The notes under the pieces are model-generated. The model did no database searches and was not told the origin of the DNA. It saw only the letters and a list, made by a program, of their open reading frames with translations. A stretch of 32,000 nt of DNA from Candidatus Nanogingivalaceae bacterium (GTDB lineage: Bacteria; Patescibacteriota; Saccharimonadia; Saccharimonadales; Saccharimonadaceae), in NCBI GenBank assembly GCA_015257795.3, contig CP072208.2, forward strand, positions 360,001-392,000, read 5' to 3'. This document shows, in pieces, positions 1,195-32,000 of the stretch (position 1 is its first letter; each line of letters opens with the position of its first letter). Both the position numbers and the translations under genes were made by a program.

Positions 1195-1210
1195 CAAGTT
1201 TTCGAAATTA

Positions 1211-3301
1211 TTATTTAGCGTTTCGCTTTTCGATAATTTCTTGCGCAACGTTAGGTGGAACTTCTTCGTATTGCGCAAGCTCCATTGTTGAGGCTGCACG
1301 ACCTTTACTCATTGAGCGTAAGTCTGAAGTGTAACCAAACATATTTGCAAGAGGCACGAAACCTCGAATAAGTTTTGTTCCGCCCATCAAATCATCCATT
1401 GAGTCGATTCGACCACGGCGTGAGTTCAAGTCTCCAATTACATCACCCATGAATTCTTCAGGAGTTGTAACTTCAACTTTCATCACAGGTTCAAGAAGAA
1501 CAGGATTTGCCTTCTTAATACCTTCACGAGTTGAAAGCGCACCAGCCAATTTAAAGGCCAATTCACTTGAGTCGACATCGTGGTAAGAACCATCGTAAAG
1601 TGTAGCTTTAACGTCAACTACTGGGTAACCAGCAATCACACCGCCTTCAAGCGTTTCAAGCACACCTTGCTCAACTGGTTTGCGGTATTCTTGTGGCACA
1701 ACACCACCTTTAATTTCATCAAAGAATTCAAAGCCTTTTCCTGGTTCATTTGGTTCAAAGCGAATCCAAACATCACCATATTGACCACGACCACCAGACT
1801 GTTTTGCGTGCTTACCTTGAGCTTCAGCAGTTCCACGAATAGTTTCACGGAAGGCAACTTGTGGCTCACCAATGTTAGCTTCAACATTAAATTCACGTTT
1901 CATTCGGTCGATCAAGATGTCAAGGTGAAGCTCACCCATTCCCGACATAATTGTTTGACCAGTTTCTTCGTCTGTGTGAACTCGGAAAGTTGGGTCTTCT
2001 TCAGCAAGTCGTTGAAGAGCGATTCCCATTTTTTCTTGGTCGGCTTTAGTTTTTGGCTCAACTGCAATCGAAACTGGTGGTTCAGCAAATTCGATACCTT
2101 CAAGAATTACACCATGGTTCAAATCACAAAGAGTTGCACCAGTTGTAACATCTTTCAAACCAACAACAGCGGCGATGTCACCAGCAGTAACTTCTGAAAT
2201 TTCTTCACGCTTATCGGCGTGCATTCGAACGATTCGTCCGATTCGTTCTTTTTTACCAGTCATTGTGTTAAGAACATATGAACCAGCAGTAATTTTACCA
2301 CTATAAACACGTACGAATACAAGTTTTCCAACAAATGGGTCAGTTGCAATCTTAAATGCAAGTGCAGAAGTTGGTTCATTTACAGATGGTTTTCGCTCAA
2401 TAGGCTCACCAGTTTTAGCATCGGTTCCCTTAATTGAAGCAATATCAAGTGGACTTGGAAGGTAATCATTAATAAGATCAAGAACCTTTTCCACGATCAC
2501 ACCACGACCATCACCACCGGTTACCAAGAAGAAATCACCAGCAAGAACTCGTTTTCGAAGAGCGGCTTTAAGTTCAGGAATCGTAATTGATTCTTCACCT
2601 TCTTCAAAGAATCGCATCATCAATTCATCATCAGCTTCAACTGCATTTTCAACAAGCAATGAACGTGCATTTTTAGCTTTTTCAAGCATGTCAGCTGGAA
2701 TTTCGCCAACTTTCAATTGGTGATCGGCATAATTATCGTAAGTGTAAGCTTTCATGTCGATAAGGTCAACAACACCGTTGATATCTTGCTCGAAACCAAT
2801 TGGCAAGTGAATTGGGAAAGCTTGTTTGCTTAGGCGATCATGGATTGATTTGATTGATTTGTAGAAATCACCACCAGTTTGGTTAATTTTGTTAATGAAA
2901 CAAACGCGTGGCACGCCGTATTTGTCAGCTTGTCGCCAAACAGTTTCAGACTGAGCTTCCACACCCATTTTACCATCAAAAACAGTAACTGCACCGTCAA
3001 GCACGCGAAGTGAACGTTCCACTTCGGCAGTAAAGTCGATGTGTCCTGGGGTGTCGATAATGTTAATTTTGTGATCTTTCCAGAAACATGTCACAGCGGC
3101 AGAAGTAATTGTAATACCTCGCTCTTTTTCCTGCGCCATCCAGTCAGTTGTTGCACCATCACCTTCACCACGAACAACACCGATTTTATGTGTCAAACCA
3201 GTTCGGTAAAGAATACCTTCTGTTGTTGTAGTTTTACCGGCATCAATGTGCGCAATAATACCAACATTTCGGAAATTTTCCAATGGAGTATTTTTATTCA
3301 T
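1211..3301 (-). CDS. fusA: Translation elongation factor G
   Basis: 696-aa ORF with the G1 motif [21 protein letters not shown]-type G4 (NKIN) and a full-length EF-G domain order. AAGAGGAA SD lies upstream of the ATG. Confidence 0.97.
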
Positions 3302-3392
3302 TTGATTCCTCTTAAATTTATTATTTTATTGCTGTTTCACGCTAGTTTTGTTGTTTTTTCGAAACCAGCACAAAAACAGCGCTTCGCTATTA

Positions 3393-3421
3393 ATTTTATC
3401 ATATTTTTAAAAAACTGTAAA
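3393..3421 (-). promoter_or_regulatory. Putative promoter of fusA
   Basis: Reverse strand reads TTTACA-N17-TAAAAT (-35 at 3416..3421, -10 at 3393..3398). It is located between an upstream terminator and fusA. Confidence 0.55.
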
Positions 3422-3431
3422 GTATAAATAG

Positions 3432-3460
3432 CCAAAAGAAAAAGCCAGTTCCTCTGGCTT
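3432..3460 (-). terminator. Rho-independent terminator of the small membrane protein gene
   Basis: AAGCCAG / ttcct loop / CTGGCTT (3442..3460). On the reverse strand it is followed by TTTTTCTTTT. Confidence 0.7.
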
Positions 3461-3466
3461 AAAAAA

Positions 3467-3664
3467 CTATCTTCGAGCGTGTTCGGGTACCTTTTCATTA
3501 TATCTTTTAATGGCAATTATTAGAGTAAGAATAACAATTCCAAAAATAAACACGCCAAAGTTCCAATGCGTCAAAATTGTTAAAAATAACGACACACCAT
3601 AGGCTGCGATAAAGTACAAGGAAACCAACAAAGACCCTTTAGCCTCGTTCAATGCTTTTTTCAT
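3467..3664 (-). CDS. Small two-TM membrane protein (65 aa), unknown function
   Basis: The track ORF 3467..3742 is shortened to the internal ATG at 3664 (MKKALNEAKGSLLVSLYF...), which has GGAGGAAATTATCCTT-ATG. The longer version would include a consensus promoter. Two hydrophobic helices. Confidence 0.6.
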   Translation of the reverse strand: MKKALNEAKGSLLVSLYFIAAYGVSLFLTILTHWNFGVFIFGIVILTLIIAIKRYNEKVPEHARR

Positions 3665-3713
3665 AAGGATAATTTCCTCCAATTTTTTATTTTCCACCCA
3701 AAGCGGAATTTCT

Positions 3714-3742
3714 ATTTTATCACAGCCTATAGCAAAAGTCAA
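3714..3742 (-). promoter_or_regulatory. Putative promoter of the small membrane protein gene
   Basis: Reverse strand reads TTGACT-N17-TGaTAAAAT (-35 at 3737..3742, -10 at 3714..3719), starting 3 nt after the rnhA stop. Confidence 0.55.
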
Positions 3743-3745
3743 GAG

Positions 3746-4162
3746 CTAAATCGTTTCGCCGTTTCTTGCCCGATTTGCCCATTCATCAGCCATTTCGTTA
3801 AACTCATGACCAGCATGCCCTTTTAGCCATTTTAGCTCTACGTTCGAATTTTTATAAAGCTCATAAAGAGGCTTTACGATATCGAGATTTTTAATTTCAC
3901 CAGTTTTCTTTTTCCAGCCGTTTCGCTCCCAAGTTGGCGCCCACTTTGTTAAAACATTAATCCAGAATTCACTATCTGTTTGAATTTCTGCCTTTTCCCC
4001 ATTTAAAATTTCGAAAGCCTTTTTTAGAGCCAAACCTTCCATTCGAATATTCGTGCTAGGGTTTTCAGATCCAAGTGCGATTGGCGCGCCGTTTTCAATC
4101 ACAGCAAAACCGCCAGGGCCAGGATTTGGCGAAGCACTACCATCAGTAAAAATAATCCGCAC
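3746..4162 (-). CDS. rnhA: Ribonuclease HI
   Basis: 138 aa with the DEDD pattern (FTDGS, MEGLA, QTDSE, MADEWA) and the GHAGHEFNE block. GTG start shares 1 nt with the upstream stop (TAGTG). Confidence 0.9.
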   Translation of the reverse strand: MRIIFTDGSASPNPGPGGFAVIENGAPIALGSENPSTNIRMEGLALKKAFEILNGEKAEIQTDSEFWINVLTKWAPTWERNGWKKKTGEIKNLDIVKPLYELYKNSNVELKWLKGHAGHEFNEMADEWANRARNGETI

Positions 4163-4722
4163 TATTGTCGTCTTCCGTTATCTTGTTGAACAAAGTTTTG
4201 AACAAAAGGTGTTTGGTTTATATTTTGATTTATACTATTCTGTAGTTGATTTTGGTAGGCTTTTGCTTTTTTCATTTTCCTGAAAGAAATAATTGCTAAA
4301 ATTAGTCCAACAACACCAAGAACCAACAAAACCACAGGGATAATAAGATTCACAATTGGATAGTCGCCAACAACTGCTGCACCAGGATTTTTTTCATCAT
4401 AAAAAACTTTAACTTTTTCACCAATCGTAGGCTCTTCATTTTGTGGATCCGCCTTTGCTTCTATTATTTCATCATTTTGGATTGAAAAATAAACAATTGG
4501 TATAATTTTATATTCGCTTGAGTTTTGACTAACTAGTTCTTTCTCAAGACCAGAGATGTCACCTTCAGTTTGTTTCCAGGTTACTCTTTTCATAAAATTA
4601 TCAAACGGTTTCATACCAAAACATACACCCGAAGTAATTAAACAAATTGCCAAAATTGTAAAAATAATTCCTCGATTTCGATAAGCTTTTGCGCCAACTC
4701 TTATTGTTTGATTTGAATTCAT
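4162..4722 (-). CDS. DUF3592-like membrane protein (TM - beta-rich domain - TM - Q/N-rich tail)
   Basis: 186 aa. It has an N-terminal TM helix, a central segment ending in VKVFYDEKNPGAAV (typical DUF3592 pattern), a second TM helix and a Q/N-rich C-terminus. AGGAGAAAAG SD. Confidence 0.65.
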   Translation of the reverse strand: MNSNQTIRVGAKAYRNRGIIFTILAICLITSGVCFGMKPFDNFMKRVTWKQTEGDISGLEKELVSQNSSEYKIIPIVYFSIQNDEIIEAKADPQNEEPTIGEKVKVFYDEKNPGAAVVGDYPIVNLIIPVVLLVLGVVGLILAIISFRKMKKAKAYQNQLQNSINQNINQTPFVQNFVQQDNGRRQ

Positions 4723-4749
4723 CTTTTCTCCTATTTGATTTATGCTATA

Positions 4750-4778
4750 AGTATACCATTTTTTATTTTTTTAGGCAA
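4750..4778 (-). promoter_or_regulatory. Putative promoter for the DUF3592-rnhA unit
   Basis: Reverse strand reads TTGCCT-N17-TGgTATACT (-35 at 4773..4778, -10 at 4750..4755). Confidence 0.5.
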
Positions 4779-4781
4779 ATT

Positions 4782-4809
4782 AAAACACTGGCGATTAAAC
4801 CAGTGTTTT
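4782..4809 (-). terminator. Hairpin/terminator downstream of rpoC
   Basis: 10-bp perfect stem AAAACACTGG / 8-nt loop / CCAGTGTTTT, 8 nt after the rpoC stop. The U-run is only the 4 Us inside the stem end, so termination may be partial. Confidence 0.5.
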
Positions 4810-4816
4810 AGTATTT

Positions 4817-7800
4817 TTACTCTTCTACAGAAGAATCATTTGTTTCATTTTCAGAATCTAAATCTTCATTGATTTCGAATTTTTCTTCATGAGCTCGAGC
4901 GCCAGTTCCAACAGGAATCTTGCGTCCGATAATCACGTTTTCTTTCAAACCATGAAGTTTATCAACTCGTCCAGAAGTTGCTGCGTTAATCAATACACTT
5001 GTTGTGTTTTGGAACGAAGCAGCCGATAGGAAGCTATCACTAAAGATTGAAACTTTCGTAATTCCAAGAAGTTGTTGCTTGAATTCAGCAGGCTTTTTAC
5101 CTTGAGCTACAAGAAGTTTGTTTGCTTCAACAACCGCAGCTTTCGAAACTACATCACCGATAATAAATGATGAATCGCCAGCGTCTTCAATTTGAACTCG
5201 GCTAAACATTTGTCGAACGATGATCTCAAGGTGTTTTGAAGCAATATCTTGACCTTGAGCTGCGTAAATTCGCAAGATTTCGTTCATAATGTATCGTTGA
5301 GTTTCTTCAACACCCTTGAACTTCATCAAATCTCGAAGATTCAATGAACCAATAGTTAGGCGATCACCCGCTCGAACAATATCGTTTTTCGAAACAGCAA
5401 GAGCCGCAACATTTGGGATTTCATATTTTACAGGATGAGCTTCACTATCTTCAGTCTCTTGAGGTGTGATCTGAACAATGTTCATGTTTCCATCTTCCCA
5501 GATATCAACTACACCTGAGACTTCTGTCATATAAGCTTGACCTTTAGGAGATCGAGCTTCAAGAAGCTCTTGAACACGAGGCAAACCTTGAGAAATCGCA
5601 CCAGATCCAGCAACACCAGAGCTGTGGAATGTGTTCAAAGTTAGCTGTGTACCAGGCTCACCAACAGACTGAGCGGCGATCACACCAACTGGTTCTGCAG
5701 GTTTAACAAGAAGTCCTGTTGCCATATCAATTCCATAAGATTTTTGTGGAATTCCCGCAAGATCTGGAGTTGAAAGCACGCTTTGAATTTTAACTTCTTT
5801 AATGTTTTCATCTTTTTCGATCGCATCGGCAATTTCCCGTGTGATAAGCTTATCTGCTTCAATATAGCCAGGAACAGCTTCGGCAGTAAATCGACCATAG
5901 AGACGATCGCTGAACGGAATCATTGTTTCTTGACTTTCAGAACGATAAATCGCAAATCCAGGATCAACTTCAGATGAATTATCCGCTACAGAGAAGACAT
6001 CTTGAGCAACATCAACGAGACGACGTGTTAGATATCCAGAGTCGGCAGTCTTAAGCGCAGTTGAGATCAATCCCTGACGCGCACCACGAGTGGCCACGAA
6101 AGCTTCAAGTGAGCTCATTCCGTGTGTGTAGTTTGAGCGAATTGGAAGCTCAATTTCACGGTTTGTTGCGTCCACCATAATTCCAGTCAAACCGGCAGCA
6201 AGACGAATATTTGTTGCGCTACCACGAGAACCAGACACAGCCATCAATCCAACCGGAGAGTCAGCACCTTGGTGCTCAACTCGCTCAGAAATCTCATCAG
6301 AAACTTCATCAATAACTTTGTGCCAGTTTTCAATAATCAAGTTGTATCGCTCTTGGTCTGTTAACAAACCTTGATCGTATTGTTCTTGAATCAATGTTGT
6401 TTTTGCATCACCGTTAGCGATAATTTCTGGAATCTTTTCACTTTCGTAAACTGTGTAGTCTTCTTTACCAATCGACAATCCTGATTTTGTTACAAATCGG
6501 AATGACAAACCTTTAATTTTATCGGCAATTTTCACGGTCATTTCAGCACCATAACGCGCAAAAACATCTGCCAAAATCTTATTGATTTGTTTTTTAGTTT
6601 GTGGATTATTATCGTATGGGTAATCTTCTGGTAGAAGCTCATTAAAGAACACTCGACCAAGAGTTGTGTTTCGAATTTCACCTTTTACAAAAACTCGAAT
6701 TGGTGTTTGAAGTGCAATAGCGCCTTTATCATAAGCCATTTCTGCTTCGAAAACATTTGCGAAAGGTCGTGGTTTCTTATTCATTTCAGAATGTTTGTCG
6801 TAGGTAATGTAGTAATTTCCGTAAACAACATCCTGGTCGACAGAAAGAACCGGTTGACCATCTGCAGGTTTCAAAAGGTTGTGAGAAATACTCATCAAGT
6901 CACGAGCTTCAGCTTGAGCGGCGTCAGAAAGTGGCAAGTGAACAGCCATCTGGTCTCCATCGTAGTCGGCGTTAAATCCGTTAGCTACAAGTGGGTGAAG
7001 TTGAATCGCTTTTCCTTCAACAAGTTTTGGCTGGAAGGCCTGAATTGAAAGTCGGTGCAATGATGGAGCACGGTTCAAAAGAATGTATTTTCCTTCAACA
7101 ACGGCATCCAAAGCATCCCAAACTTCAGCTTCTCGCGCATCAATTAATCGAGTTGCTGAACGAATATTGTGTGCGTATTCTTTTTCAATCAACCATGAGA
7201 TAACGAAAGGCTTAAACAATTCTAGCGCCATTTGTGTTGGTAGACCACATTGATGAGCTTTCAAAGTTGGTCCAACAACGATCACAGAACGACCGGAGTA
7301 GTCAACACGTTTTCCAAGCAAGTTTTGACGGAATCGACCTTGCTTACCCTTTAGCATATCGCTCAAAGATTTAAGCTTGCGGCGTCCACCAGCTGTGCTT
7401 ACAGAACGACCACTTCGAGAAGCATTGTTATCAATCAATGAATCTACAGCCTCTTGGAGCATTCGCATTTCGTTTCGCTTAATCACCATTGGCGCATTAA
7501 GTTCGATCAATTTCTTCAAACGATTGTTTCGGTTAATTACTCGGCGATACAAATCGTTTAAGTCTGAAGTCGCAAATCGACCACCTGTCAATTGAACCAT
7601 AGGTCGCAAATCTGGTGGAATCACTGGAAGAACAGTTAGGCATAGACTTCCTGGTTTAATTCCAGCATTTTTCATACCTTCGATTGTTTTTAGACGTTTA
7701 AGAATTTTCTTCTCTCGTTGACCTTTAGCCTTTTCAGCTTCAGCTTCAAGTTTTTCGATAAGTTCATCAATGTTGATTTCATCAAGCAAAGTCTTAATTG

Positions 7801-16188: not shown

Positions 16189-16217
16189 TTGACTTTTATT
16201 CTTTTTTTGTATATAAT
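16189..16217 (+). promoter_or_regulatory. Putative promoter of ogt
   Basis: TTGACT-N17-TATAAT (consensus apart from 1 nt). The ATG is 12 nt after the -10 and has no SD. Confidence 0.6.
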
Positions 16218-16229
16218 TACTGTATTAAA

Positions 16230-16736
16230 ATGTGTGAACTGAAATTATCTAAAATTCAAACCCCTTTGGGTGAAATGATTGCAATTGCGAATGAAGACGC
16301 ATTAGTTTTTTTGGAATTTCAAGACAACGATAATTTCGAAAAAGATCTTGAGCAAATTAAAGATTTTTTCGAAACAACTGAAATTCCTGAAGGCGAAAAT
16401 TTGCCTATAAAACAAATTCGCGCCGAACTTGAAGATTATTTCAAACACCCTTTTGCCGGCTTTCAAACACCTATCGAGATGATTGGCACAGATTTTCAAA
16501 AACAAGTTTGGGAAGAAATTCGAAACGTTCGATCAGGCTCAACTACAACTTATTCAGAAATTGCCGAAAAAATCGAAAATCCAAATGCAATCCGCGCAGT
16601 TGGTAATGCTCTAAACGCCAATAAACTTTCAATAATTATTCCTTGTCATCGAGTTCTCACTAAAGACATGGATTTTGGCGGCTACAATAGCGGACAAAAT
16701 CGCAAAAGCTGGCTACTTCAACATGAAGGAATTTAA
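16230..16736 (+). CDS. ogt: Methylated-DNA--protein-cysteine methyltransferase (O6-alkylguanine repair)
   Basis: The track ORF is trimmed to the ATG at 16230 (MCELKLSKIQTPLGEM...). It has the active-site IIPCHRV motif, the helix-turn-helix TYSEIAEKI and the NALNANKLSIIIPCHRVL block. The upstream 81 codons overlap clpC and the promoter. Confidence 0.9.
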   Translation: MCELKLSKIQTPLGEMIAIANEDALVFLEFQDNDNFEKDLEQIKDFFETTEIPEGENLPIKQIRAELEDYFKHPFAGFQTPIEMIGTDFQKQVWEEIRNVRSGSTTTYSEIAEKIENPNAIRAVGNALNANKLSIIIPCHRVLTKDMDFGGYNSGQNRKSWLLQHEGI

Positions 16737-16768: not shown

Positions 16769-17719
16769 CTAGAGGCTTTCGATATCTTCACTTCTTTCTT
16801 CGAGGTCTTCAGTAAATTTTACCCCATCTTCTCCCAACATCATCATTGTAGCAATCGTTAGAGCATAGTCATAACAATTCCCAATATCGCAATACAATCC
16901 GTTAATTCGAACTGCATAGAATTTCATTCCATCATTCATTGCATTTTGTACAGGAATCTGATACATCAACTCACCGTTTCCGTCAAAATTTTCCGCATAA
17001 TCACTCATATATTTAATGAGTTCATTTTCGAAAATTGCTCCACGAACACTTGCGAGCTCGCTTTTAGCCTTTTCAAAACCTGGTTTTTCGTCGATTTTTT
17101 CAACTTCTAAAACCAAATTATCGTTTTTGTCTCGCGGACGATGAATGATTTCACCCACAACAATTGCATATTTTCCATACTCATCGTCGTTCCGCACTTG
17201 CTTAACCGGCAGAATGCTTCCGCCAAACTTCTCGTAAGCTTCGAAGATTTGCTCGAATTCATTTTTACCAACTGTTGCAAAGTTGTCGTCTGGGAAAAAG
17301 TAAGCAAAATCGCTTTCACCGATGAAATCAATAACTTCAGGTGTGCTGAGTGGAGCTTGATTACCATAGAATTCGCAATCTTGTTGGATAAATTTCGCCG
17401 GAGCTAAAAATTCAACCTGTTCAACTTTTTCAGCAAAATCATGTTTACCCTTGCTTCGAAGCTCTTCAACAATTGCTTTTTTACTTTCGAAAACACTTTT
17501 TATTGAAGTTTTTTCAGGGCTAATAACAATCGCAACGTTCTTTGTGAGTATTCCAGCCTGAACCAGCTTCTTCATCAAAACCACAATTGAATTTTGTAGG
17601 TAGCCCTCAAAGGGTATTGGTAGTAATTCTTTGGCAACTTCTGTGGTTGCTGGTAATGCACGCGTACCATTTCCTGCTGCAGGAATGATAACTTTCAATT
17701 CTTCACGTTTCTTTCGCAT
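16769..17719 (-). CDS. Nucleotidyltransferase, divergent UTP--glucose-1-phosphate uridylyltransferase (GalU)-like
   Basis: 316 aa. The N-terminus VIIPAAGNGTRALPATTEVAKELLPI follows the GalU pattern IPAAGxGTRxLPxTKxxPKExLPI. Later blocks (FFPDDNF, VEKIDEKP, YCDIGN) are collinear with GalU, but several signature residues differ. GGAGG SD. Confidence 0.7.
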   Translation of the reverse strand: MRKKREELKVIIPAAGNGTRALPATTEVAKELLPIPFEGYLQNSIVVLMKKLVQAGILTKNVAIVISPEKTSIKSVFESKKAIVEELRSKGKHDFAEKVEQVEFLAPAKFIQQDCEFYGNQAPLSTPEVIDFIGESDFAYFFPDDNFATVGKNEFEQIFEAYEKFGGSILPVKQVRNDDEYGKYAIVVGEIIHRPRDKNDNLVLEVEKIDEKPGFEKAKSELASVRGAIFENELIKYMSDYAENFDGNGELMYQIPVQNAMNDGMKFYAVRINGLYCDIGNCYDYALTIATMMMLGEDGVKFTEDLEERSEDIESL

Positions 17720-19143: not shown

Positions 19144-19145
19144 TT

Positions 19146-19661: not shown

Positions 19662-19694
19662 TTTCTTCACCTCCTAAGGTACTAAACTCATCCC

Positions 19695-19723
19695 ATTATA
19701 TTTTATTTTCAATTTAAAAACAA
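19695..19723 (-). promoter_or_regulatory. Putative promoter of the DUF1653-domain gene
   Basis: Reverse strand reads TTGTTT-N17-TATAAT (-35 at 19718..19723, -10 at 19695..19700). Confidence 0.45.
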
Positions 19724-19727
19724 GCTC
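19716..19727. repeat. Left copy of a 12-bp perfect inverted repeat bracketing the accessory patch
   Basis: AAAAACAAGCTC here is the exact reverse complement of GAGCTTGTTTTT at 20662..20673. Confidence 0.6.
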
Positions 19728-19732
19728 TTTAG

Positions 19733-19966
19733 AATGTCGCTGTTTTTCATAAGAGATGCTTAGAAGCTAACTACTCTGTTTCATTCCTTGACGGAACCTA
19801 TCTTCCGTTAAGACATGGAACCGTTAGTAAAGAATGTATTCATATCGCACTTGGCATTACACCAGAAGGACAGAAGGTTGTTCTTGGATATGAAATCACC
19901 CCAAACGAAAAACAATGCTTGTTAGTCCACCCTGTTAGACAGATTTCAAAGTCAACGCATCCATAA
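19733..19966 (+). pseudogene. IS256-family (mutator-type) transposase fragment, internal ~50-60 codons only
   Basis: The plus-strand frame reads ...RCLEANYSVSFLDGTYLPLRHGTVSKECIHIALGITPEGQKVVLGYEITPNE... This matches the conserved IS256 Tnp block (L..Y..lflDa.y.kvR....v.....y.alGi..dG...vLG). There is no start codon, SD or remainder of the ~400-aa protein, and similarity decays after ITPNE. Confidence 0.6.
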
Positions 19967-20051
19967 ATGGTTTGGCTAATGTTCTGACACACTTGAAAGC
20001 TTATTTGATTAACACTCCGTAAAACTCTACTAGAGTGTTTATACAAAATTA

Positions 20052-20081
20052 TTGACAGTATCTTTTTCTTTCTGATATAAT
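20052..20081 (+). promoter_or_regulatory. Near-consensus promoter of the SemiSWEET gene
   Basis: TTGACA-N18-TGaTATAAT, followed by a GGAGG SD 7 nt before the ATG. Confidence 0.7.
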
Positions 20082-20100
20082 AAACCTCAGGAGGTATTAT

Positions 20101-20364
20101 ATGTCTAAACAAAAAATTAATCGCTTTGTCGGATCTATTGGAGCTTTTATTGGGATCCTTGTCTTTATTGCATATGTTCCACAAATTATCGCTAACCTGC
20201 AAGGAGTAAAAGCTCAACCGTTCCAACCACTATTCGCAGCAGTTTCTTGTTTAATTTGGGTAATCTATGGTTGGACAAAAGAACCTAAAAAAGATTGGAT
20301 CCTCATTATTCCTAATGCAGCGGGAGTGATATTAGGCGGTTTAACTTTTATTACTTCTTTATAA
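20101..20364 (+). CDS. SemiSWEET family sugar transporter (3-TM PQ-loop protein)
   Basis: 87 aa with three TM helices. It has the PQ motif in TM1 (AYVPQIIANL), W..YG in TM2 (LIWVIYGW) and a conserved Asn in TM3 (IIPNAAGVILG). Confidence 0.8.
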   Translation: MSKQKINRFVGSIGAFIGILVFIAYVPQIIANLQGVKAQPFQPLFAAVSCLIWVIYGWTKEPKKDWILIIPNAAGVILGGLTFITSL

Positions 20365-20378
20365 AAATTATATAAACA

Positions 20379-20412
20379 AAACCAGCAACTTCATAAAAGT
20401 TGCTGGTTTTTC
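20379..20412 (+). terminator. Rho-independent terminator of the SemiSWEET gene
   Basis: 12-bp stem AAACCAGCAACT / tcataaa / AGTTGCTGGTTT running into TTTTC. Confidence 0.8.
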
Positions 20413-20429
20413 TGCTGGTCGTAGGAATT

Positions 20430-20609
20430 AAGCCTATTTCCAAATATACAAAGCTACCAGAATTAGCCGTTGAGATAGTGAATGAGCTGATTGATAAGAT
20501 TGTGATTCATAAACTAACTGGCACGAAACACAATCGTACTATCCAAATTTACGTTTATTACAATTTCATCGAAAAACTAGATAAGGAAAAAGCGAGCCAA
20601 ACGACTTGA
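20430..20609 (+). pseudogene. C-terminal remnant of a large serine recombinase (DUF4368-like tail)
   Basis: KPISKYTKLPELAVEIVNELIDKIVIHKLTGTKHNRTIQIYVYYNFIEKLD... resembles the extreme C-terminus of DUF4368-containing serine recombinases (eLt.e.l..lIdkI.Vh......r.q.I.I.Y.F.g). No catalytic domain is present. The TTG start in the track lies inside the SemiSWEET terminator. Confidence 0.45.
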
Positions 20610-20661
20610 CTCGCTAATATTAACCCATTTAGCTAAACTGCTATTGTCAGGTCAGCCGATT

Positions 20662-20673
20662 GAGCTTGTTTTT
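20662..20673. repeat. Right copy of the 12-bp inverted repeat bracketing the accessory patch
   Basis: GAGCTTGTTTTT is the reverse complement of 19716..19727. Confidence 0.6.
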
Positions 20674-20689
20674 TATTGTATATATTCAA

Positions 20690-22207: not shown

Positions 22208-22242
22208 AAAGAACACACCCCGTTTCTAATTTGATATTTAAT

Positions 22243-24423: not shown

Positions 24424-24430
24424 TAGCCCC

Positions 24431-24459: not shown

Positions 24460-24462
24460 CTT

Positions 24463-24491
24463 TTGATTTTTAGCTTAAAAAATGCTAAAAT
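24463..24491 (+). promoter_or_regulatory. Putative promoter of the PLC-like/rsmD unit (leaderless geometry)
   Basis: TTGATT-N17-TGcTAAAAT-ttatac-ATG. The A of the ATG at 24498 is the 7th nt after the -10, and there is no SD. Confidence 0.6.
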
Positions 24492-24497
24492 TTATAC

Positions 24498-25927: not shown

Positions 25928-25956
25928 TAACCCTCCTTCAAGGGTTATTATTTTTA
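25926..25956. terminator. Bidirectional terminator between rsmD and the TMEM175-like gene (convergent)
   Basis: AATAACCCT / ccttca / AGGGTTATT (9 bp), with an A-run before it and TTTTT after it. Confidence 0.75.
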
Positions 25957-26622
25957 CATATCTCTTTCAAGTTCTTCTCTTTCGTCTTCAAAAACAGTAA
26001 ATAATGAAATTACTACGGGTAGAACAATTAAGAAGAAAATTTCAACTTGCGGTAAAAAAATTGAGATAAAAGCGATTATTGCAATCCATACCACCATCAC
26101 ACCCGTATGCAAAAGATGGTATTTTCGTTGAATTCTACGATTCTCTCCATGAAAAAAGCCTGCATTATCACCAGATGCACTCGCAGTAATCCAACGAGTT
26201 GCAAGATCTGTAAGTAGATAAATCATCGCATAGCCAAATGCTGGAAGCACCTCGTTTGGCGAAGAAAGCACCCAACGCATGAAAAGCGGAATTAACGACA
26301 TAAAAAACATATACATCATATTCTTCCAAATAAAGCTATTTGTTACTCTATCCACTTTATCTAAAATATGGTGATGTCTGTTCCACTGAATACCAACAAT
26401 AATAAAACTTGCAAAATAAATTAAAATCGAAAAGCCAAACTTGTGCAATTCCGTTAAGCTATTTGAAGAAGTTGGTAATTTAATCTCAAGAACCATCAAA
26501 GTAATAATAATAGCCGTTGCTCCATCTATTAGTCCAACCAACCTATCCTTTGAAATCTTTCCACCATGGTAAATTTTATGTATTCGGCCTAATCGCCTAT
26601 ATGCATTTCTAGTCCTATCCAT
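25954..26622 (-). CDS. TMEM175/DUF1211-family membrane protein (putative K+ channel)
   Basis: 222 aa with about 6 TM helices. TM1 RLVGLIDGATAIIITLMVLEI follows the family signature RxxxFSDGxxAIxxTLLVLE, with FS replaced by LI. The W..HH block follows TM2. Confidence 0.75.
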   Translation of the reverse strand: MDRTRNAYRRLGRIHKIYHGGKISKDRLVGLIDGATAIIITLMVLEIKLPTSSNSLTELHKFGFSILIYFASFIIVGIQWNRHHHILDKVDRVTNSFIWKNMMYMFFMSLIPLFMRWVLSSPNEVLPAFGYAMIYLLTDLATRWITASASGDNAGFFHGENRRIQRKYHLLHTGVMVVWIAIIAFISIFLPQVEIFFLIVLPVVISLFTVFEDEREELERDM

Positions 26623-26641
26623 CTTTTCCTTTCTCGGGATA

Positions 26642-26670
26642 ATTATAACATGTTTTACTTATTTTTTCAA
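26642..26670 (-). promoter_or_regulatory. Putative promoter of the TMEM175-like gene
   Basis: Reverse strand reads TTGAAA-N17-TGtTATAAT, followed by a short leader with an AGAAAGGA SD. Confidence 0.55.
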
Positions 26671-26689
26671 AATGCTTATATTTTATAGG

Positions 26690-26727
26690 CAAAATAAAAC
26701 CGCCCCTTCAGAAAAGCAAGCGGTTTT
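26690..26727 (-). terminator. Terminator of rpsL-rpsG
   Basis: AAAACCGC ... GCGGTTTT (8 bp, 16-nt loop). On the reverse strand it is followed by ATTTTGCC. Confidence 0.6.
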
Positions 26728-26734
26728 ATACTGA

Positions 26735-27214
26735 TTATCCTCGTGCAAAGTGAGCAAAAGCACGGTTAGCTTCTGCCATCTTATGAGTATCTTCTTTCTT
26801 TTTGAAAGCTGCACCAGTTTCATTATAAGCATCAACAATTTCAAGTGCTAAACGTTGACTGTAAGGCATTCCGCTTCGTGCTCGAGCTGCTTGAACTAGC
26901 CAGCTAAAAGCAAAGTGAAGTTGTCGGTGTCCTTGAACTGGGAACGGAATCTGATAGTTAGCACCACCAACGCGTCGAGATTTAACTTCAAATGCTGGTG
27001 AAATATTTTTCAAAGCCTTTTCAAAGATCTCTAATGGATCTTCACTATCAAGTTTTTTGGCTGCAGTTTCAAGTGCTTTATAAACAGCTTTTTCGGCAAC
27101 AAGTTTTTTACCGTCAAGCATAGATTTGTTGATCAATCTTTGAACCAAAACTGATTGGTATCGTCGGTCTGGTTTTAGTTCTCGTTGTAACTTCTTGGTA
27201 ACTTTTCGGGGCAT
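26735..27214 (-). CDS. rpsG: 30S ribosomal protein S7
   Basis: 159 aa, unmistakable S7 (MPRK...DRRYQSVLVQRLINK...GGANYQIPFPV...AHFARG). Confidence 0.97.
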   Translation of the reverse strand: MPRKVTKKLQRELKPDRRYQSVLVQRLINKSMLDGKKLVAEKAVYKALETAAKKLDSEDPLEIFEKALKNISPAFEVKSRRVGGANYQIPFPVQGHRQLHFAFSWLVQAARARSGMPYSQRLALEIVDAYNETGAAFKKKEDTHKMAEANRAFAHFARG

Positions 27215-27216
27215 CT

Positions 27217-27627
27217 TTATTTCTCCTTCTTCGCACCGTATTTTGAACGGCCTTGTTTACGATCTGAAACACCTTGAAGGTCTAGTGCACCGCGTACGAT
27301 GTGATATCGCACACCTGGAAGGTCAGGCACACGTCCACCGCGAACCAAAACTACGGCGTGCTCTTGAAGGTTGTGACCTTCACCACCAATGTAAGCCCAT
27401 ACTTCATAACCATTTGTCAAGCGAACACGTGCAACTTTTCGGAGCGCTGAGTTAGGCTTTTTAGGTGTCTTTGTTGTAACTTTAACACAAACTCCACGTT
27501 TTAGAGGTGCGTTTTGTGCATAATATTTAGTTTTTAGCGCATTATGGATTCGTCCAAGTGCTGGCGATTTTGATTTTTTCGCAGCAGTCTTTCGAGGTTT
27601 TCGCACTAACTGATTGATTGTTGGCAT
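27217..27627 (-). CDS. rpsL: 30S ribosomal protein S12
   Basis: [13 protein letters not shown]...[19 protein letters not shown]...[17 protein letters not shown]. The start is trimmed to the ATG at 27627, after a GGGAG SD. The extra Met in the track comes from a TTG. Confidence 0.97.
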
Positions 27628-27697
27628 CAATTCTCCCTTAAATTATTTAATATTTCACTTCCCAAAAGTTGATAAATCTTTTAAAAAGTGCCTCATA

Positions 27698-27724
27698 TTT
27701 TTCGAAACAGCATTTTCGAAAAAT
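27698..27724 (-). repeat. Two adjacent TTTCGAAA-type palindromes in the rpsL leader, able to form a 10-bp hairpin
   Basis: TTTCGAAA at 27700..27707 and TTTTCGAAAA at 27713..27722. On the reverse strand TTTTTCGAAA-atgctg-TTTCGAAAAA. Confidence 0.6.
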
Positions 27725-27793
27725 GTCTTTACCTTTTTAGCTGAACTCCTTAACACACAAATTCATTCACTAAAAAGAGGAAACTCACTAAGT

Positions 27794-27822
27794 ATTTTAC
27801 CAAATTTTTAATCAAAAATCAA
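27794..27822 (-). promoter_or_regulatory. Putative promoter of rpsL-rpsG (leader about 160 nt)
   Basis: Reverse strand reads TTGATT-N17-TGgTAAAAT (-35 at 27817..27822, -10 at 27794..27799), 10 nt after the recG stop. I see no terminator between recG and rpsL. Confidence 0.5.
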
Positions 27823-27831
27823 GACTAAAAT

Positions 27832-29883
27832 CTAATTTAATAGAGTTAGGCGTTGATATTTTTCAAGAGTTTTTGGTCTATTGCTTAGGTATTTTTTCCA
27901 TTCTTCTTGATTTTCGAAAAGAAAGTCCACAGCAGATTGCGCTTGATAAATTATCTGCGTATCACCAATATTTGCAAATTCCAGATTAATTTCACCCGAC
28001 TGAGCCTTACCGTAGATTTCACCCGCGCCACGAAGCTCTAGATCTTTTTCTGCCAAAATAAAACCATCGTCTATTTTAGAAATTTCCTGAAGTCTTTGAG
28101 GCGGTTTTGCGTTAGAACTCATTACAAGATAGCAAAAAGCATCTCCGCCACCGCGACCAACACGCCCACGCAACTGGTGAAGCTGCGCCAAACCAAAACG
28201 ATCCGCATTCTCAATCACAATTACACTTGCATTTGGAATATCAACACCAACTTCAATAACAGTAGTCGATAATAAAATATCCGCTTTTTTCGCCAAAAAA
28301 TCTGCCATAACTTGTTCTTTTTCTTCAGATTTCATTTTTCCATGAAGTTGTAAAATTCGAAGACCCTTAAAATCACGTTTTAACCGCTTAAATTCTGTTT
28401 CGACATTTTTAATTTCTTCGTTTTTGCCCTCTTGAATTGCGGGAACAATAATAAACACTTGTCGCCCGTTCGAAATTTCCGTTTTGATTTTAGAATTCAT
28501 TGGTGTACGAGATGCCGGCGAAATAATTTCTGTTTTTACAGGTTTTCGCCCAGCCGGTTTTTCCTTTAAAATTGAAACACTCAAATCTCCAAAAAGAGTC
28601 AATTGTAATGATCGTGGAATTGGCGTCGCCGTCATCGCAAGCAAATGCGGCATCTTCTGATGCGATTTTTCAAGAATTTTCTGCCGTTGAGCTACACCAA
28701 AACGATGTTGTTCGTCAATAATCACCAAACCAAGATTCGAAAATTCAACTTTATCTTGTATGATTGCACTCGTTCCAACCAAAACATCTATTTCACCATT
28801 TTTTAAGTTTTGATAAAGATTTTCTCTCTGTTTGCCCTTAACTTTCCCCGACAAAAAACCAACCGAAATATTAGCCCAAGATAATGTTTTCGAAAAATTC
28901 TCCGCAAGCTGAAATGCTAAAATTTCAGTTGGTGCAAAAACAGCAACCTGAAAACCATTTTTAATCGCATTTAATGCTGAAATCGCCGCCACTGTCGTTT
29001 TACCGGATCCAACATCACCCTGTAAAAGCCGATTCATCGGAAAATCTTGTTTCATATTTTGAATTATCTCCCAAGAAGCCAACCTTTGAGAAGGCGTTAA
29101 ATCAAACGGAAGTTTTTCGACAAACTTTTTTACATCTTGAATTCTTGGCTCAAAAATATATCCGCGCAACTGTTCATTTTCTATTTTATTCAATTTCGAA
29201 GCCAATATTAACTCAAAAATCTCCTCGAAGGCCAATCGTTTTATCGCTAAATCAAACTGCTTTCCAGATTCAGGAAAATGCACCCACTCAATTGCTTGCG
29301 CACGTGAAATTAGTTTTTCTTTTTGAACAACAACTTCCGGTAAAGTTTCAGGCAGAATTTTCATGAGCGGTTTTAACTCCGCCAAAGTTTTACGAATTAT
29401 ATCCGTTCTCAAACCTTTTTTTTGATGATAAATTGGCACAATTTCACCATTTTCACCTTCGAAATTTGTTTTATTCGGCAACTCTTCGTGCTTCATTACG
29501 CTTGGGTTTGTGATTTGGTAACGATTATAGTTAAATTCAAACTTTCCCGAAAAATAAAATTCATTTTCATCCTGCAACTGCTTAACCCTATAAGGTTGAT
29601 TAAACCAAATCGCTTTAATCTTCTCCTTACCATCTGTTAAAATCGCCTCAGTTATGGTCATTCCCCGACGAACCCGGCGCATAGAAACTTTTTCAGCATA
29701 AGCTTTAAATAAAACTTTTCCCGGCTTAATTTCATTCAAACTAGTTAAACTTGCAAAATCTTCATATTTTCTCGGAAAAAACTCTAAAAGATCGCCAACT
29801 GTTCTTAAATTAGCATTTTCGAATTTTTCAAGTGTTTTTTCGCCAACACCTTTTACTAAACCGAGCGAAGAATTCAAATTCAT
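27832..29883 (-). CDS. recG: ATP-dependent DNA helicase RecG
   Basis: 683 aa with a wedge domain N-terminus (GVGEKTLEKF..LRTVGDLLEFFPRKYED), helicase motif I GDVGSGKT, motif II DEQHRFG, and QLHQLRGRVGRG. Confidence 0.95.
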   Translation of the reverse strand: MNLNSSLGLVKGVGEKTLEKFENANLRTVGDLLEFFPRKYEDFASLTSLNEIKPGKVLFKAYAEKVSMRRVRRGMTITEAILTDGKEKIKAIWFNQPYRVKQLQDENEFYFSGKFEFNYNRYQITNPSVMKHEELPNKTNFEGENGEIVPIYHQKKGLRTDIIRKTLAELKPLMKILPETLPEVVVQKEKLISRAQAIEWVHFPESGKQFDLAIKRLAFEEIFELILASKLNKIENEQLRGYIFEPRIQDVKKFVEKLPFDLTPSQRLASWEIIQNMKQDFPMNRLLQGDVGSGKTTVAAISALNAIKNGFQVAVFAPTEILAFQLAENFSKTLSWANISVGFLSGKVKGKQRENLYQNLKNGEIDVLVGTSAIIQDKVEFSNLGLVIIDEQHRFGVAQRQKILEKSHQKMPHLLAMTATPIPRSLQLTLFGDLSVSILKEKPAGRKPVKTEIISPASRTPMNSKIKTEISNGRQVFIIVPAIQEGKNEEIKNVETEFKRLKRDFKGLRILQLHGKMKSEEKEQVMADFLAKKADILLSTTVIEVGVDIPNASVIVIENADRFGLAQLHQLRGRVGRGGGDAFCYLVMSSNAKPPQRLQEISKIDDGFILAEKDLELRGAGEIYGKAQSGEINLEFANIGDTQIIYQAQSAVDFLFENQEEWKKYLSNRPKTLEKYQRLTLLN

Positions 29884-29889
29884 TACTTT

Positions 29890-29898
29890 ATTATATCA
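29890..29898 (-). promoter_or_regulatory. Extended -10 element 6 nt before the recG ATG (leaderless geometry)
   Basis: Reverse strand reads TGATATAAT-aaagta-ATG. The -35 is weak and there is no SD. Confidence 0.45.
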
Positions 29899-29925
29899 CA
29901 TATTGATTACGGCTAAAATTCCTTA

Positions 29926-29957
29926 TAACAAAAAATGAGCAGTTTTCACTACTCATT
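29926..29957 (-). terminator. Rho-independent terminator of the RNase J gene
   Basis: Reverse strand reads AATGAGTAG-tgaaaa-CTGCTCATT (9 bp, one G-U pair) followed by TTTTTGTT. Confidence 0.7.
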
Positions 29958-29965
29958 TTGAAATT

Positions 29966-32000
29966 TTAAACTTTATTTACAACCGGAATAACGATTGGTG
30001 TATGACCAGTTGAGTCAAACAAGATATGAGAAATATCATCCTTGATCTCTTGTTTCATATCTGCAATTTCGATTTTACGTTCAACTTCGCGATCGGTTTT
30101 AATTCGCAAATAATGACGAATCTTACCAATCAATTCTTCACTATCTTTAAGATATACAAATCCACGAGAAATCACATCTGGAGTCTTCAATAACCGACCC
30201 GTTTTCTTACTAATAGTTAGAACAATAATAAAGATTCCCTCTGTCGAAATATGCAAACGATCTTTTACAACAGCATCATGAACCGTGTTTCCAGTATTGT
30301 CATAAAGAATTGATCCAACATGAACGCGGCCACCTTTTTTAATTGTGCGCTCTTTGGTTAATTCAATAATATCACCGCTATCCGCAACAAGAATTTCATG
30401 TCGTTTTAGCCCAAGCACTTTTTGCGCCATTTCGGCATTATGTTGAAGCATATAGAATTCACCGTGAACTGGCAAGTAGTTTTTTGGACGAATAGTTTCA
30501 ACCAATCGAACATGATCATCATAATATGCATGCCCCGAAAGATGTAGAGGGCCAATTCCGTGATAATGACCACGGCCGTGTTGAATTACACCGGCACCCT
30601 CGCGCAACAATCCATCCACTGTTGAGGCAACTCTAGGCTCATTTCCAGGAATAGGACTTGATGAAAACACCACAACATCAGTTGCTTTAATTTTCACAAA
30701 TCGGTGAGCTCCAGTTGCCATGCGGTTCAAAACAGCATTTAATTCACCCTGTGAGCCGGTACATACGATTGAGACTTTCGAATCATCAAGTTTAACGATA
30801 TCTTCCATTTTCACAATAACATCTTTAGGAACTTTAATTTTTCGTGATCGCAAAGCAACTTCAATTGCGTTAATCATTGAGAAACCTGCAAAAGCCACTT
30901 TCCTATTATGTTTTACCGCTTCATCGAGAATCAATTGCAATCGATAAATCTGACTTGAAAAACATGAGAAAATCAATCGAGCGTGAGGGTAAGCTGTCAT
31001 AACCTCGCCAACACTTTCACCAATGGAATATTCACTGTGTGGGTGTGTTCCCGGTGTATCAATATTAGTACTTTCGTTCATTAATAGATCAACGCCCTCT
31101 TTTTGCGCAATCTCAGCAAGACGTGGAAGGTCGAACTGTGTGTCGACTGGATCATTTTCGAAACGCCAGTCACCCATATGTACAATGTTTCCATTTGGCG
31201 TACGAATAACCATCGCTACACATCCTGGAATTGAGTGAAGAACATGCACGAACTCAAGCGTCATATGCTCAGAAATCCTAATCTGTTCGTGTTTAAATGG
31301 ATCAACAACTTGATAGTTTGGTGAAACTTCAACAACCGCCTCTTCCATTTGACGCTTAATCATACCAATCGTAAAATCAGTAGCATAAATTGGAATATTG
31401 TTTCCAAATTCAGGCAAGAGCTGACGAACTGCACCAATGTGGTCAAGGTGGGCATGAGTAAATGCAACCGCTTTAACTTTATGCATATTATCTTTCAAAT
31501 ATGTAATATCCGGCGTCATAAAGTTTACACCAGGGTAGTCTTCGTTAGGAAAAATTGAGCCCATATCGATAACTAGGATTTCATCCATATACTCGATTGC
31601 GAACATATTTTTACCAATTCCAAACTCGCCCAAACCACCAAGCGGAATCACTCGCACGCTATCTTTTTCTGGGCGAAGTTTTTTCAACTTCGAAGCCGTT
31701 AATTGTTCACCATCAAAACCATTGAACAGCGATTTGTTAACAGGGATATTTACGATATGTTGCGTTGCGCGCATATTAATGTCATTTGAGATCATTCTTT
31801 GAGCACGAATAACCGCACCACGCCTTGTTGTTGTTGGTAGATTTACCTTTTTTGCATCATTTTTTTGTGAATGATTGTGCTTAGCGATATTCTTTGCTTT
31901 TTGCTGAGCTACTTTTGCAGACTTCTTTTCGCTTTCTTTCTTGCTGTTTCCAACGTATTTATCGCGATTTTTTTGCAGATCTTGCGCCTTTTTTTGTAAA
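29966..32000 (-). CDS. rnj: Ribonuclease J (metallo-beta-lactamase/beta-CASP RNase); the reading frame is open to the window edge, so the true start is undetermined
   Basis: Contains the HAHLDHIG zinc motif, the beta-CASP region and an RNase J C-terminal domain. The track starts at the ATG at 31795, but that ATG has no SD. The same frame continues without a stop through base 32000 as a Lys-rich segment (...KKAQDLQKNRDKYVGNSKKESEKKSAKVAQQKAKNIAKHNHSQKNDAKKVNLPTTTRRGAVIRAQR-MISND...). Confidence 0.9.
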   Translation of the reverse strand, partial: LQKKAQDLQKNRDKYVGNSKKESEKKSAKVAQQKAKNIAKHNHSQKNDAKKVNLPTTTRRGAVIRAQRMISNDINMRATQHIVNIPVNKSLFNGFDGEQLTASKLKKLRPEKDSVRVIPLGGLGEFGIGKNMFAIEYMDEILVIDMGSIFPNEDYPGVNFMTPDITYLKDNMHKVKAVAFTHAHLDHIGAVRQLLPEFGNNIPIYATDFTIGMIKRQMEEAVVEVSPNYQVVDPFKHEQIRISEHMTLEFVHVLHSIPGCVAMVIRTPNGNIVHMGDWRFENDPVDTQFDLPRLAEIAQKEGVDLLMNESTNIDTPGTHPHSEYSIGESVGEVMTAYPHARLIFSCFSSQIYRLQLILDEAVKHNRKVAFAGFSMINAIEVALRSRKIKVPKDVIVKMEDIVKLDDSKVSIVCTGSQGELNAVLNRMATGAHRFVKIKATDVVVFSSSPIPGNEPRVASTVDGLLREGAGVIQHGRGHYHGIGPLHLSGHAYYDDHVRLVETIRPKNYLPVHGEFYMLQHNAEMAQKVLGLKRHEILVADSGDIIELTKERTIKKGGRVHVGSILYDNTGNTVHDAVVKDRLHISTEGIFIIVLTISKKTGRLLKTPDVISRGFVYLKDSEELIGKIRHYLRIKTDREVERKIEIADMKQEIKDDISHILFDSTGHTPIVIPVVNKV

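Follow-up and report, generated by a model that had tools for sequence, protein, structure and literature searches.

The question raised by this locus is why one short palindrome, TTTCGAAA, recurs so often in a 32,000-nucleotide stretch of a Candidatus Nanogingivalaceae genome (contig CP072208.2, positions 360,001 to 392,000; the whole stretch is called the window). By exact count, the window holds 73 TTCGAA hexamers, all of them within 1201..31694, and 36 of the 73 lie within TTTCGAAA, which gives 1.1 octamers per kb. An earlier note on this DNA, made from the letters alone, had claimed about 71 hexamers and about 36 octamers; its counts were thus close to exact, and its five example coordinates for the octamer were all correct. 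The octamer is a genome signature of the highly iterated palindrome (HIP) type in one sub-clade of this family; it is specific to that clade and restricted to core DNA, and its sites are conserved as well as actively replenished.

Abundance and reading frames of the octamer

The octamer count was compared to the expectation from several null models. The base composition of the window is A 29.9, T 32.3, G 16.2 and C 21.7% (GC 37.8%), with a mild excess of the CG dinucleotide (observed/expected = 1.19). Against the 36 copies observed in the whole window, 1.0, 4.1 and 6.6 were expected under the order-0, order-1 Markov and order-3 models, respectively, and TTTCGAAA was the highest-scoring 8-mer under the order-1 model. 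When the synonymous codons of 21 genes were shuffled, 29 octamers were observed compared to 5.8 ± 2.2 expected, and 64 hexamers compared to 27.4 ± 4.3. A stricter null, run 100 times on 22 genes, held fixed the proteins, the codon usage and every dinucleotide, including those at codon junctions. It gave 7.7 ± 2.4 octamers for 31 observed, with a maximum of 14 in the 100 runs; the corresponding values were 34.5 ± 4.6 for 67 hexamers and 171.6 for 192 copies of TCGA. Over every null tried, the octamer scored z = 9.6–15.7, and its enrichment was about 36-fold over base composition and 4–9-fold over the context-aware nulls. The strong excess described in the earlier note was therefore confirmed, and so was its attribution to a process at the DNA level, because the excess stays under a null that preserves codons and dinucleotides, a check which that note had proposed.

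The hexamer was enriched 2–3 times, but TTCGAA not inside the octamer reached merely about 1.6 times its expectation. The excess had been claimed for TTCGAA and the octamer alike; it stands for the octamer and largely falls away for the hexamer elsewhere. The unit under pressure is the octamer, not the hexamer.

The flanks of the 36 copies were unrelated, and the word did not extend past 8 bp. Therefore, TTTCGAAA is a bare word in dispersed single copies and not part of a repeat element or mobile element. The spacing between copies ranged from 14 to 6538 bp. Octamer density was alike within genes and between genes, and the five intergenic copies of the window compared to 0.29 expected (17-fold). 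An RNA explanation was not supported, as Rfam and tRNA scans of the window gave nothing, and neither was a promoter role, as the intergenic octamers sit downstream of promoter-like sites and none lies inside them. Sequence beyond the window was taken from contigs with identical EF-G or RecG. It contained 10 octamers in 7.7 kb on the right side (1.0 expected) and 9 in 5.4 kb on the left side past a variable island (0.94 expected), so the excess does not vanish outside the window.

Genic octamers were then assigned to reading frames. The frame xTT-TCG-AAA (Ser-Lys) held 19 octamers compared to 2.9 expected, and the frame xxT-TTC-GAA-A (Phe-Glu) held nine compared to 2.2. These two frames were used at 4–6.6 times expectation, and the peptides encoded by them are unrelated. 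The frame TTT-CGA-AAx held one octamer compared to 0.8, and just three Phe-Arg-Lys/Asn sites exist. The earlier note had placed the motif in all three reading frames; the first two are enriched and the last is not. Synonymous choice, also proposed as a check, followed the octamer: TCG made up 16% of all Ser codons but was used in 19 of 26 xTT-Ser-AAA contexts, and Ser-Lys outside the TT..AAA context used TCG at baseline (6 of 32). The octamer was carried by 19 of 33 [FLIV]-Ser-Lys sites and by 11 of 18 permissive x-Phe-Glu-[A..] sites, an occupancy of about 60% among the peptide sites able to hold it. fusA and rpoB seem to lack octamers simply because each offers one or two permissive sites.

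A bias in the codon pairs TCG-AAA and TTC-GAA, or a selective advantage of the peptides Ser-Lys and Phe-Glu, would fit the finding that 28 of 29 scored genic copies lie in two frames, 19 of them in xTT-TCG-AAA, and a genuine single-frame codon-context effect is present in this genome (GAG preferred before C). However, the shuffle preserving proteins, codons and junction dinucleotides leaves the excess in place, two frames reach the same palindrome through unrelated peptides, and the intergenic copies far exceed expectation. Moreover, Ser-Lys sites without the TT..AAA context show no preference for TCG, and the word is missing in close relatives with the same proteins. The codon-level explanation is highly improbable and is effectively refuted, as the earlier note had held in calling the excess more than a single-codon effect: two frames and the intergenic DNA are enriched, and codon choice departs only in the full octamer context. 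Chance, base composition, a hidden repeat family or a mobile element has next to no probability and is refuted. Nothing favors it beyond AT-richness and the mild CpG excess, and against it stand the z values under all nulls, the unrelated flanks, and the recurrence of the excess to either side of the window and in about 25 related species.

Besides the octamer, TGAGC-containing words were over-represented under the synonymous shuffle (e.g., TTGAGC, 22 compared to 6.3 expected). GAG made up 57% of the Glu codons followed by C and 15–22% of the others; equivalently, GAAC was avoided. This is a single-frame codon-context effect on non-palindromic words, unlike the octamer pattern.

Distribution and turnover among relatives

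The RpoB of the window is 99% identical to that of a metagenome-assembled genome (MAG) of Candidatus Nanogingivalaceae (Saccharibacteria/TM7 group G6), and the close relatives are oral and gut MAGs. For a phylogenetic survey, the rpoB ± 10 kb loci of GTDB species were analyzed. At RpoB identities of at least 94%, nearly every species (about 25 related) carried about 1.0–1.6 octamers per kb; the exception among close relatives was L078 (RpoB 98%), with 0.44 per kb. At about 88% RpoB identity, the octamer was strong in L028 (45% GC; 40 copies compared to 4.0 expected), moderate in L025 (10 compared to 2.4) and weak in the L026/27/30 group (7–8 compared to 2.2). L029 (N. gingivitcus), L031 and L032 (85% RpoB identity) held 0–1 copies. 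Among the more distant Saccharibacteria sampled, more than one copy was found only in L044 (4) and L037 (2). Three sub-lineages are therefore strong or moderate and one is faded. A tree of RpoB and RpoC placed them as ((window group, L026 group),(L028, L025)), with L029 and L031/32 outside. On this topology, the simplest history would be that the word was gained once inside the family and later faded in the L026 group.

No replacement over-represented word or alternate palindrome was found in L026/27/30, L029, L031/32 or the more distant Saccharibacteria. Restriction avoidance in the sisters was considered and rejected: TTCGAA occurred once compared to 5.2 expected in L029 and three times compared to 9.5 in L031, but unrelated low-GC bacteria were equally below the order-1 expectation.

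Other words were repeated at some of these loci. The 8-mer ATAATCTC/GAGATTAT occurred 4–8 times per locus in several other Saccharibacteria (L031, L035 and L044), perhaps as a regulatory or promoter motif that they share. L032 contained a (GATA)n microsatellite, in which ATAGATAG was counted 12 times.

Metagenome and viral collections were scanned for three clustered octamers. Almost all matches were tandem satellites with conserved flanks. In L151, L133, L118, L123 and L216, TTTCGAAA lay within such satellites (e.g., 27-nt and about 36-nt units), unrelated to the dispersed word of the window. A 4-kb fragment, L114, resembled the bare-word pattern. In the viral collection, L237/L238 (IMGVR_UViG_3300044959_000237, 111 kb) and L248 held 16–20 dispersed copies of TTTCGAAA in 7–12 kb. 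L237, the sole one with listed ORFs, was very rich in TTCGAA and CGAA, with long ORFs in almost every frame and rare stop codons; it is an odd genome without similarity to the Saccharibacteria loci.

The octamer was distributed unevenly between core DNA and variable islands. The islands contained 4 octamers in 29 kb (0.14 per kb), and the flanking core contained 0.87 per kb. Islands are octamer-poor and the core is rich; therefore, the octamer is a property of long-resident DNA.

The slot of these islands, directly downstream of fusA, is a strain-variable defence island (window 2..1048 on the minus strand; about 12180..18800 in L002–L007). Strains with identical EF-G carry Type I, Type IIG/Eco57I-like, Type III, or GmrSD and HEPN genes in this slot. 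The islands there are AT-richer (GC 0.29–0.35) and almost without the octamer. In the assembly collection, 398 blocks contain this exact EF-G protein. fusA itself (window 1211..3301) is 94.0% identical in nucleotides to that of L026 (83.6% at third positions), compared to 81%/61% for rpoB, and the fusA of L030, the sister of L026, is 87.7%/69% identical to that of the window. These identities suggest a recent cross-species allele exchange at fusA.

Codon alignments of orthologous genes showed octamer positions that differ between lineages, and some gains came with an amino-acid change, such as TTTCGAAA (Ser-Lys) compared to TGGCCGAA (Ala-Glu) in clpP. Retention of sites was compared to ordinary 8-mers of the same gene and frame. 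Between the window and L016, 10 of 17 sites were kept (3.1 expected), and between the window and L028, 6 of 10 (1.2 expected). No site was kept between the window and L029 or between the window and L031. Sites are thus retained only between lineages having the excess, and the comparison of orthologs that the earlier note had suggested revealed lineage-specific gain and retention.

Parsimony on a nucleotide alignment of 12 genomes gave the numbers of losses and gains, counted where positions were intergenic or synonymous. The octamer was lost 14 times compared to 47.6 expected for matched mutation types, about three times slower than control words. The outer T/A positions (1–3) showed no loss compared to 19.5 expected, and the central CpG was lost at 0.039 per site-branch compared to 0.079 for other CpGs. 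Gains from one-off neighbours numbered 8 compared to 3.0 expected (p = 0.012), about 2.7 times faster. A crude loss-rate control (p = 5e-9) was found to be inflated, with very frequent words scoring a median ratio of 0.54, and it was replaced by a set of 132 control words, each represented by 10 or more independent sites. Their pooled loss ratio was 0.82. The octamer ratio of 0.29 was below 94% of these words, and the rescaled expectation was 38.9 losses (p = 4e-6).

The one-off neighbours TTTCAAAA and TTTCTAAA turned over faster than expected, and one-off words were not depleted (TTTTGAAA/TTTCAAAA, 14 compared to 12.9; TTTGAA/TTCAAA, 77 compared to 71.5). A hypermutable CpG, as for 5-methylcytosine, was considered because 21 of 34 losses were CpG transitions, and it was ruled out by the halved loss rate of the octamer CpG. 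Slow loss at all eight positions, faster gain and undepleted neighbours together therefore indicate a fixation bias favouring the whole octamer and not a one-position mutational quirk, without the signature of Vsr-type repair.

Known systems and the maintenance of the octamer

The likeness to HIP1 and to uptake sequences drawn in the earlier note was upheld. HIP1 (GCGATCGC) and the alternate HIPs of cyanobacteria are also exact 8-bp palindromes with a Type-II-like 6-bp core containing CG. HIP1 likewise occurs about once per kb as scattered single copies whose flanks are unrelated, and it lies between genes as well as inside them, there in more than one frame. Between related genomes it is better conserved than control words are, and it is widespread in its clade with exceptional lineages lacking it. 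The differences are that the present word is another, AT-rich one in the phylum Patescibacteria, in a genome of about 0.7 Mb, and that it marks part of one family whereas HIP1 covers most of a phylum. Enrichment of HIP1 is 15–300-fold, compared to the context-dependent 4–9-fold and composition-based 36-fold values here. No alternate word occurs here where the octamer is missing. HIP1 has cognate methyltransferases (CGATCG, GATC); no counterpart was identified at the loci read here.

DNA uptake sequences (DUS) of Neisseriaceae and uptake signal sequences (USS) of Pasteurellaceae also occur about once per kb in core genes, with few copies in recently acquired DNA, and the phylum of the window is, like those families, naturally competent (PMC10633639). 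Such words are placed where proteins tolerate them, sometimes with an amino-acid change, and a drive by uptake and recombination would give the slow-loss, fast-gain pattern seen here. However, DUS and USS are asymmetric 9–12-mers in one orientation, often paired as terminators, unlike the present palindrome, and their sister lineages carry dialects whereas the sisters here have no alternative word.

In Campylobacter jejuni, the orphan methyltransferase CtsM methylates RAATTY and thereby marks self DNA for transformation. The short palindromic site is shared with the octamer, for which a methylated state is hypothetical. To our knowledge, RAATTY has not been reported as strongly over-represented, unlike the octamer. 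In E. coli, Dcm and Vsr create an excess of CCWGG through repair bias; this very-short-patch (VSP) repair depletes T:G-derived neighbours and acts at the C/T position. An over-represented palindrome is common to both cases, that of Dcm/Vsr being a methyltransferase target, but here the neighbours are undepleted and all eight positions are protected. The TTCGAA core is an AsuII/BstBI-type Type II restriction-modification site. Genomes with a restriction enzyme usually avoid its site; here, in contrast, the site is over-represented, with the octamer as the unit. We know of no Type II enzyme for the octamer TTTCGAAA.

By analogy with these systems, we tentatively favor the reading that TTTCGAAA is a tag of self DNA, driven by a preference of uptake or recombination for octamer-bearing DNA, probably methylated, and we consider this reading plausible. 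A clade-specific factor that can be lost would read the whole palindromic octamer. This reader would be a dimeric DNA-binding protein and, by analogy with HIP1, most likely an orphan Type-II-like DNA methyltransferase with TTCGAA as its core site. DNA bearing the octamer, possibly in modified form, would be favoured in the uptake and recombination of conspecific DNA by natural transformation. Site-bearing alleles would then displace site-less alleles in a molecular drive, by which the octamer would become a tag of self DNA. Lineages losing the reader would stop maintaining their sites, which would decay as in the L026 group. Published observations agree with this reading. HIP1 raises natural transformation in a way that depends on methylation (bioRxiv 10.1101/2024.09.10.611283) and has been proposed as an uptake recognition sequence (bioRxiv 10.64898/2026.06.24.733823). 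High-frequency HIPs are described as co-occurring with cognate orphan methyltransferases (PMC4390886). The natural competence of Saccharibacteria depends on ComEC (PMC10633639). The fusA identities of L026 further point to allele exchange between species of this clade.

Several points weigh against a self-DNA tag. Pfam and motif scans, which covered the readable sequence of the window, ± 10 kb and the relatives' rpoB loci, found no TTCGAA- or TTTCGAAA-directed methyltransferase, nuclease or DNA receptor there; apart from RNA methylases, the methyltransferases present were Type I, IIG or III enzymes that vary between strains. Competence was demonstrated for group G1 Saccharibacteria (PMC10633639) and not for G6. 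Known uptake sequences are not palindromic, as described above, and the enrichment of about 4–5-fold over codon-aware nulls is far below the 15–300-fold of USS or HIP1. The data consist of about 50 kb of this species and orthologous loci of about 23 kb in relatives, the parsimony counts are small, and the crude control had overstated the slow-loss effect. Finally, the slow-loss, fast-gain pattern is explained just as well by biased repair or by ordinary selection for any function within the cell.

L023 contains, at 656..2489 on the minus strand, a 611-aa ORF with cytosine-5 methyltransferase motifs (PCQxFS, ENV) plus DPPY, which was not seen in the loci of sister species. This ORF may encode a methyltransferase of fused or dual type and belong to a further variable region.

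Site-directed biased DNA repair, in the form of Elhai's HIP model or of Vsr-like very-short-patch repair, offers an unlikely alternative. A methyltransferase would mark the site, and mismatches would be resolved toward the strand with the intact or methylated octamer, so that sites would be made and kept without a cellular function. The joint rise of gain and drop of loss agrees with this model, as do the reduced loss of the octamer CpG, the finding that a T>C or A>G change made the central CpG in half of the inferred gains, the lineage-specific and loseable nature of the trait, and the absence of the word from foreign islands. The classic VSP signature is absent, however, since TTTTGAAA/TTTCAAAA are undepleted, and protection of the outer T/A is not expected from T:G-specific patch repair, although Elhai's whole-site model could produce it. 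Neither a methyltransferase for the word nor a vsr gene was found in the window, ± 10 kb or the relatives' loci. HIP1 sites are conserved, and Xu et al. take this conservation as selection and not as replenishment by repair (PMC5861425). Following their view of HIP1, the octamer could instead be bound in the cell by a nucleoid-associated or chromosome-organising protein, abundant and specific to the clade, with ordinary purifying selection keeping the sites; we consider this quite unlikely. Conservation above background at all eight positions, the fit of a palindrome to a dimeric binder and the similar genic and intergenic densities agree with it. On the other hand, about 60% saturation of permissive sites and gains at many positions exceed what spacing or structuring would need, and the L026 group lost most of the excess without visible change in the conserved genes examined. 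We also know of no candidate nucleoid protein for the octamer. Known Chi sites are asymmetric and read on one strand, and their skew follows the direction of replication. Orientation and strand skew are impossible for a palindrome, and it is very unlikely that the octamer is a Chi-like recombination or repair hotspot, at which a helicase-nuclease would recognise the word, spare self DNA and stimulate RecA loading. The enrichment in core DNA and the absence from foreign islands would nevertheless agree with such a role, and an effect of this kind has been suggested for HIP1 (bioRxiv 10.1101/2024.09.10.611283).

No earlier report of TTTCGAAA as a genomic signature or of a HIP-like word in Saccharibacteria, and no paper linking Saccharibacteria with a palindromic methyltransferase motif, was found in the literature searched. 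It is possible, with considerable doubt, that the octamer is the first HIP- or uptake-type self-DNA tag outside cyanobacteria and Proteobacteria, by which a clade of ultrasmall, host-dependent, naturally competent Saccharibacteria would mark its own DNA, probably by methylation of the palindrome, and prefer marked DNA in uptake or recombination, through a reader gained once within Nanogingivalaceae and lost later in one sub-lineage. If true, the tag would separate conspecific DNA for exchange from host and community DNA.

The octamer represents a second case of the HIP1 puzzle, which remained unexplained for three decades and was recently tied to methylation-dependent transformation. A genome of about 0.7 Mb is a much smaller search space for the responsible gene, and strong, fading and absent states occur among close relatives; the case is notable also for its phylum and tiny genome. 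Competence of Saccharibacteria was shown only in 2023, and a self-recognition signal would affect the gene exchange of these epibionts as well as their engineering, e.g., by adding the octamer to transforming DNA or methylating it there. In addition, octamer density is a simple marker for binning the clade and for spotting its recently acquired DNA.

Positions of the copies in the window

The positions of all 36 octamers are listed in the table, together with the Type III gene that served as a negative control within the window.

Table. Octamer copies and the in-window control gene, with positions in the window
Feature	Position	Strand	Location and remarks
TTTCGAAA	1200..1207		intergenic, 3 nt past fusA stop codon
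TTTCGAAA	3357..3364		intergenic, 56 nt upstream of fusA start, downstream of promoter-like site
TTTCGAAA	4009..4016		RNase H gene, frame xxT-TTC-GAA-A
TTTCGAAA	5141..5148		rpoC, frame xTT-TCG-AAA
TTTCGAAA	5387..5394		rpoC, frame xTT-TCG-AAA
TTTCGAAA	11925..11932		intergenic, 59 nt upstream of rpoB start
TTTCGAAA	12502..12509		hypothetical gene, 213-aa (DYFEKG), Phe-Glu frame
TTTCGAAA	13104..13111		clpP, Phe-Glu frame; orthologous site without octamer in L016, L010, L012
TTTCGAAA	13126..13133		clpP, Ser-Lys frame; orthologues have TGGCCGAA (Ala-Glu)
TTTCGAAA	13626..13633		clpC (EISKE*), Ser-Lys frame
TTTCGAAA	13899..13906		clpC, Ser-Lys frame
TTTCGAAA	13962..13969		clpC, Ser-Lys frame
TTTCGAAA	14484..14491		clpC, Ser-Lys frame
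TTTCGAAA	14526..14533		clpC, Ser-Lys frame
TTTCGAAA	14571..14578		clpC, Ser-Lys frame
TTTCGAAA	15314..15321		clpC, Phe-Glu frame
TTTCGAAA	15873..15880		clpC (ESPLSKHR), Ser-Lys frame
TTTCGAAA	16334..16341		ogt, O6-methylguanine-DNA methyltransferase gene (16200..16736 +), Phe-Glu frame
TTTCGAAA	16367..16374		ogt gene (16200..16736 +), Phe-Glu frame
TTTCGAAA	17026..17033		316-aa gene 16769..17719 (-), galU-like by sequence only, Phe-Glu frame
TTTCGAAA	17485..17492		galU-like gene 16769..17719 (-), Phe-Glu frame
TTTCGAAA	18566..18573		nusA, Ser-Lys frame
TTTCGAAA	20870..20877		tig, Ser-Lys frame
TTTCGAAA	21074..21081		tig, Ser-Lys frame
TTTCGAAA	21749..21756		tig, Ser-Lys frame; kept in L028, L026, L027, L030
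TTTCGAAA	21834..21841		tig (GFRKGK); sole copy in frame TTT-CGA-AAG
TTTCGAAA	22389..22396		SpoU-family RNA methylase gene, Ser-Lys frame
TTTCGAAA	23083..23090		FAD-linked oxidase gene, Ser-Lys frame
TTTCGAAA	23311..23318		FAD-linked oxidase gene, Ser-Lys frame
TTTCGAAA	24595..24602		284-aa gene (weak Zn_dep_PLPC match), Ser-Lys frame
TTTCGAAA	25325..25332		284-aa gene (weak Zn_dep_PLPC match), Phe-Glu frame
TTTCGAAA	27700..27707		intergenic, upstream of rpsL
TTTCGAAA	27714..27721		intergenic, upstream of rpsL, 6 nt from 27700..27707 copy
TTTCGAAA	27912..27919		recG, Phe-Glu frame
TTTCGAAA	28888..28895		recG, Ser-Lys frame
TTTCGAAA	31156..31163		RNase J gene, Phe-Glu frame
Type III Mod methyltransferase gene, 5' part	2..1048	-	strain-variable; zero TTCGAA/TTTCGAAA; in-window negative control

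A region of about 1 kb at 19671..20689 lacks a long ORF. The 128-aa ORF at 19840..20226 on the minus strand looks spurious, and Rfam and tRNA scans of this region were empty. The gene calls of matching contigs give an 87-aa MtN3_slv/semiSWEET-like gene here.

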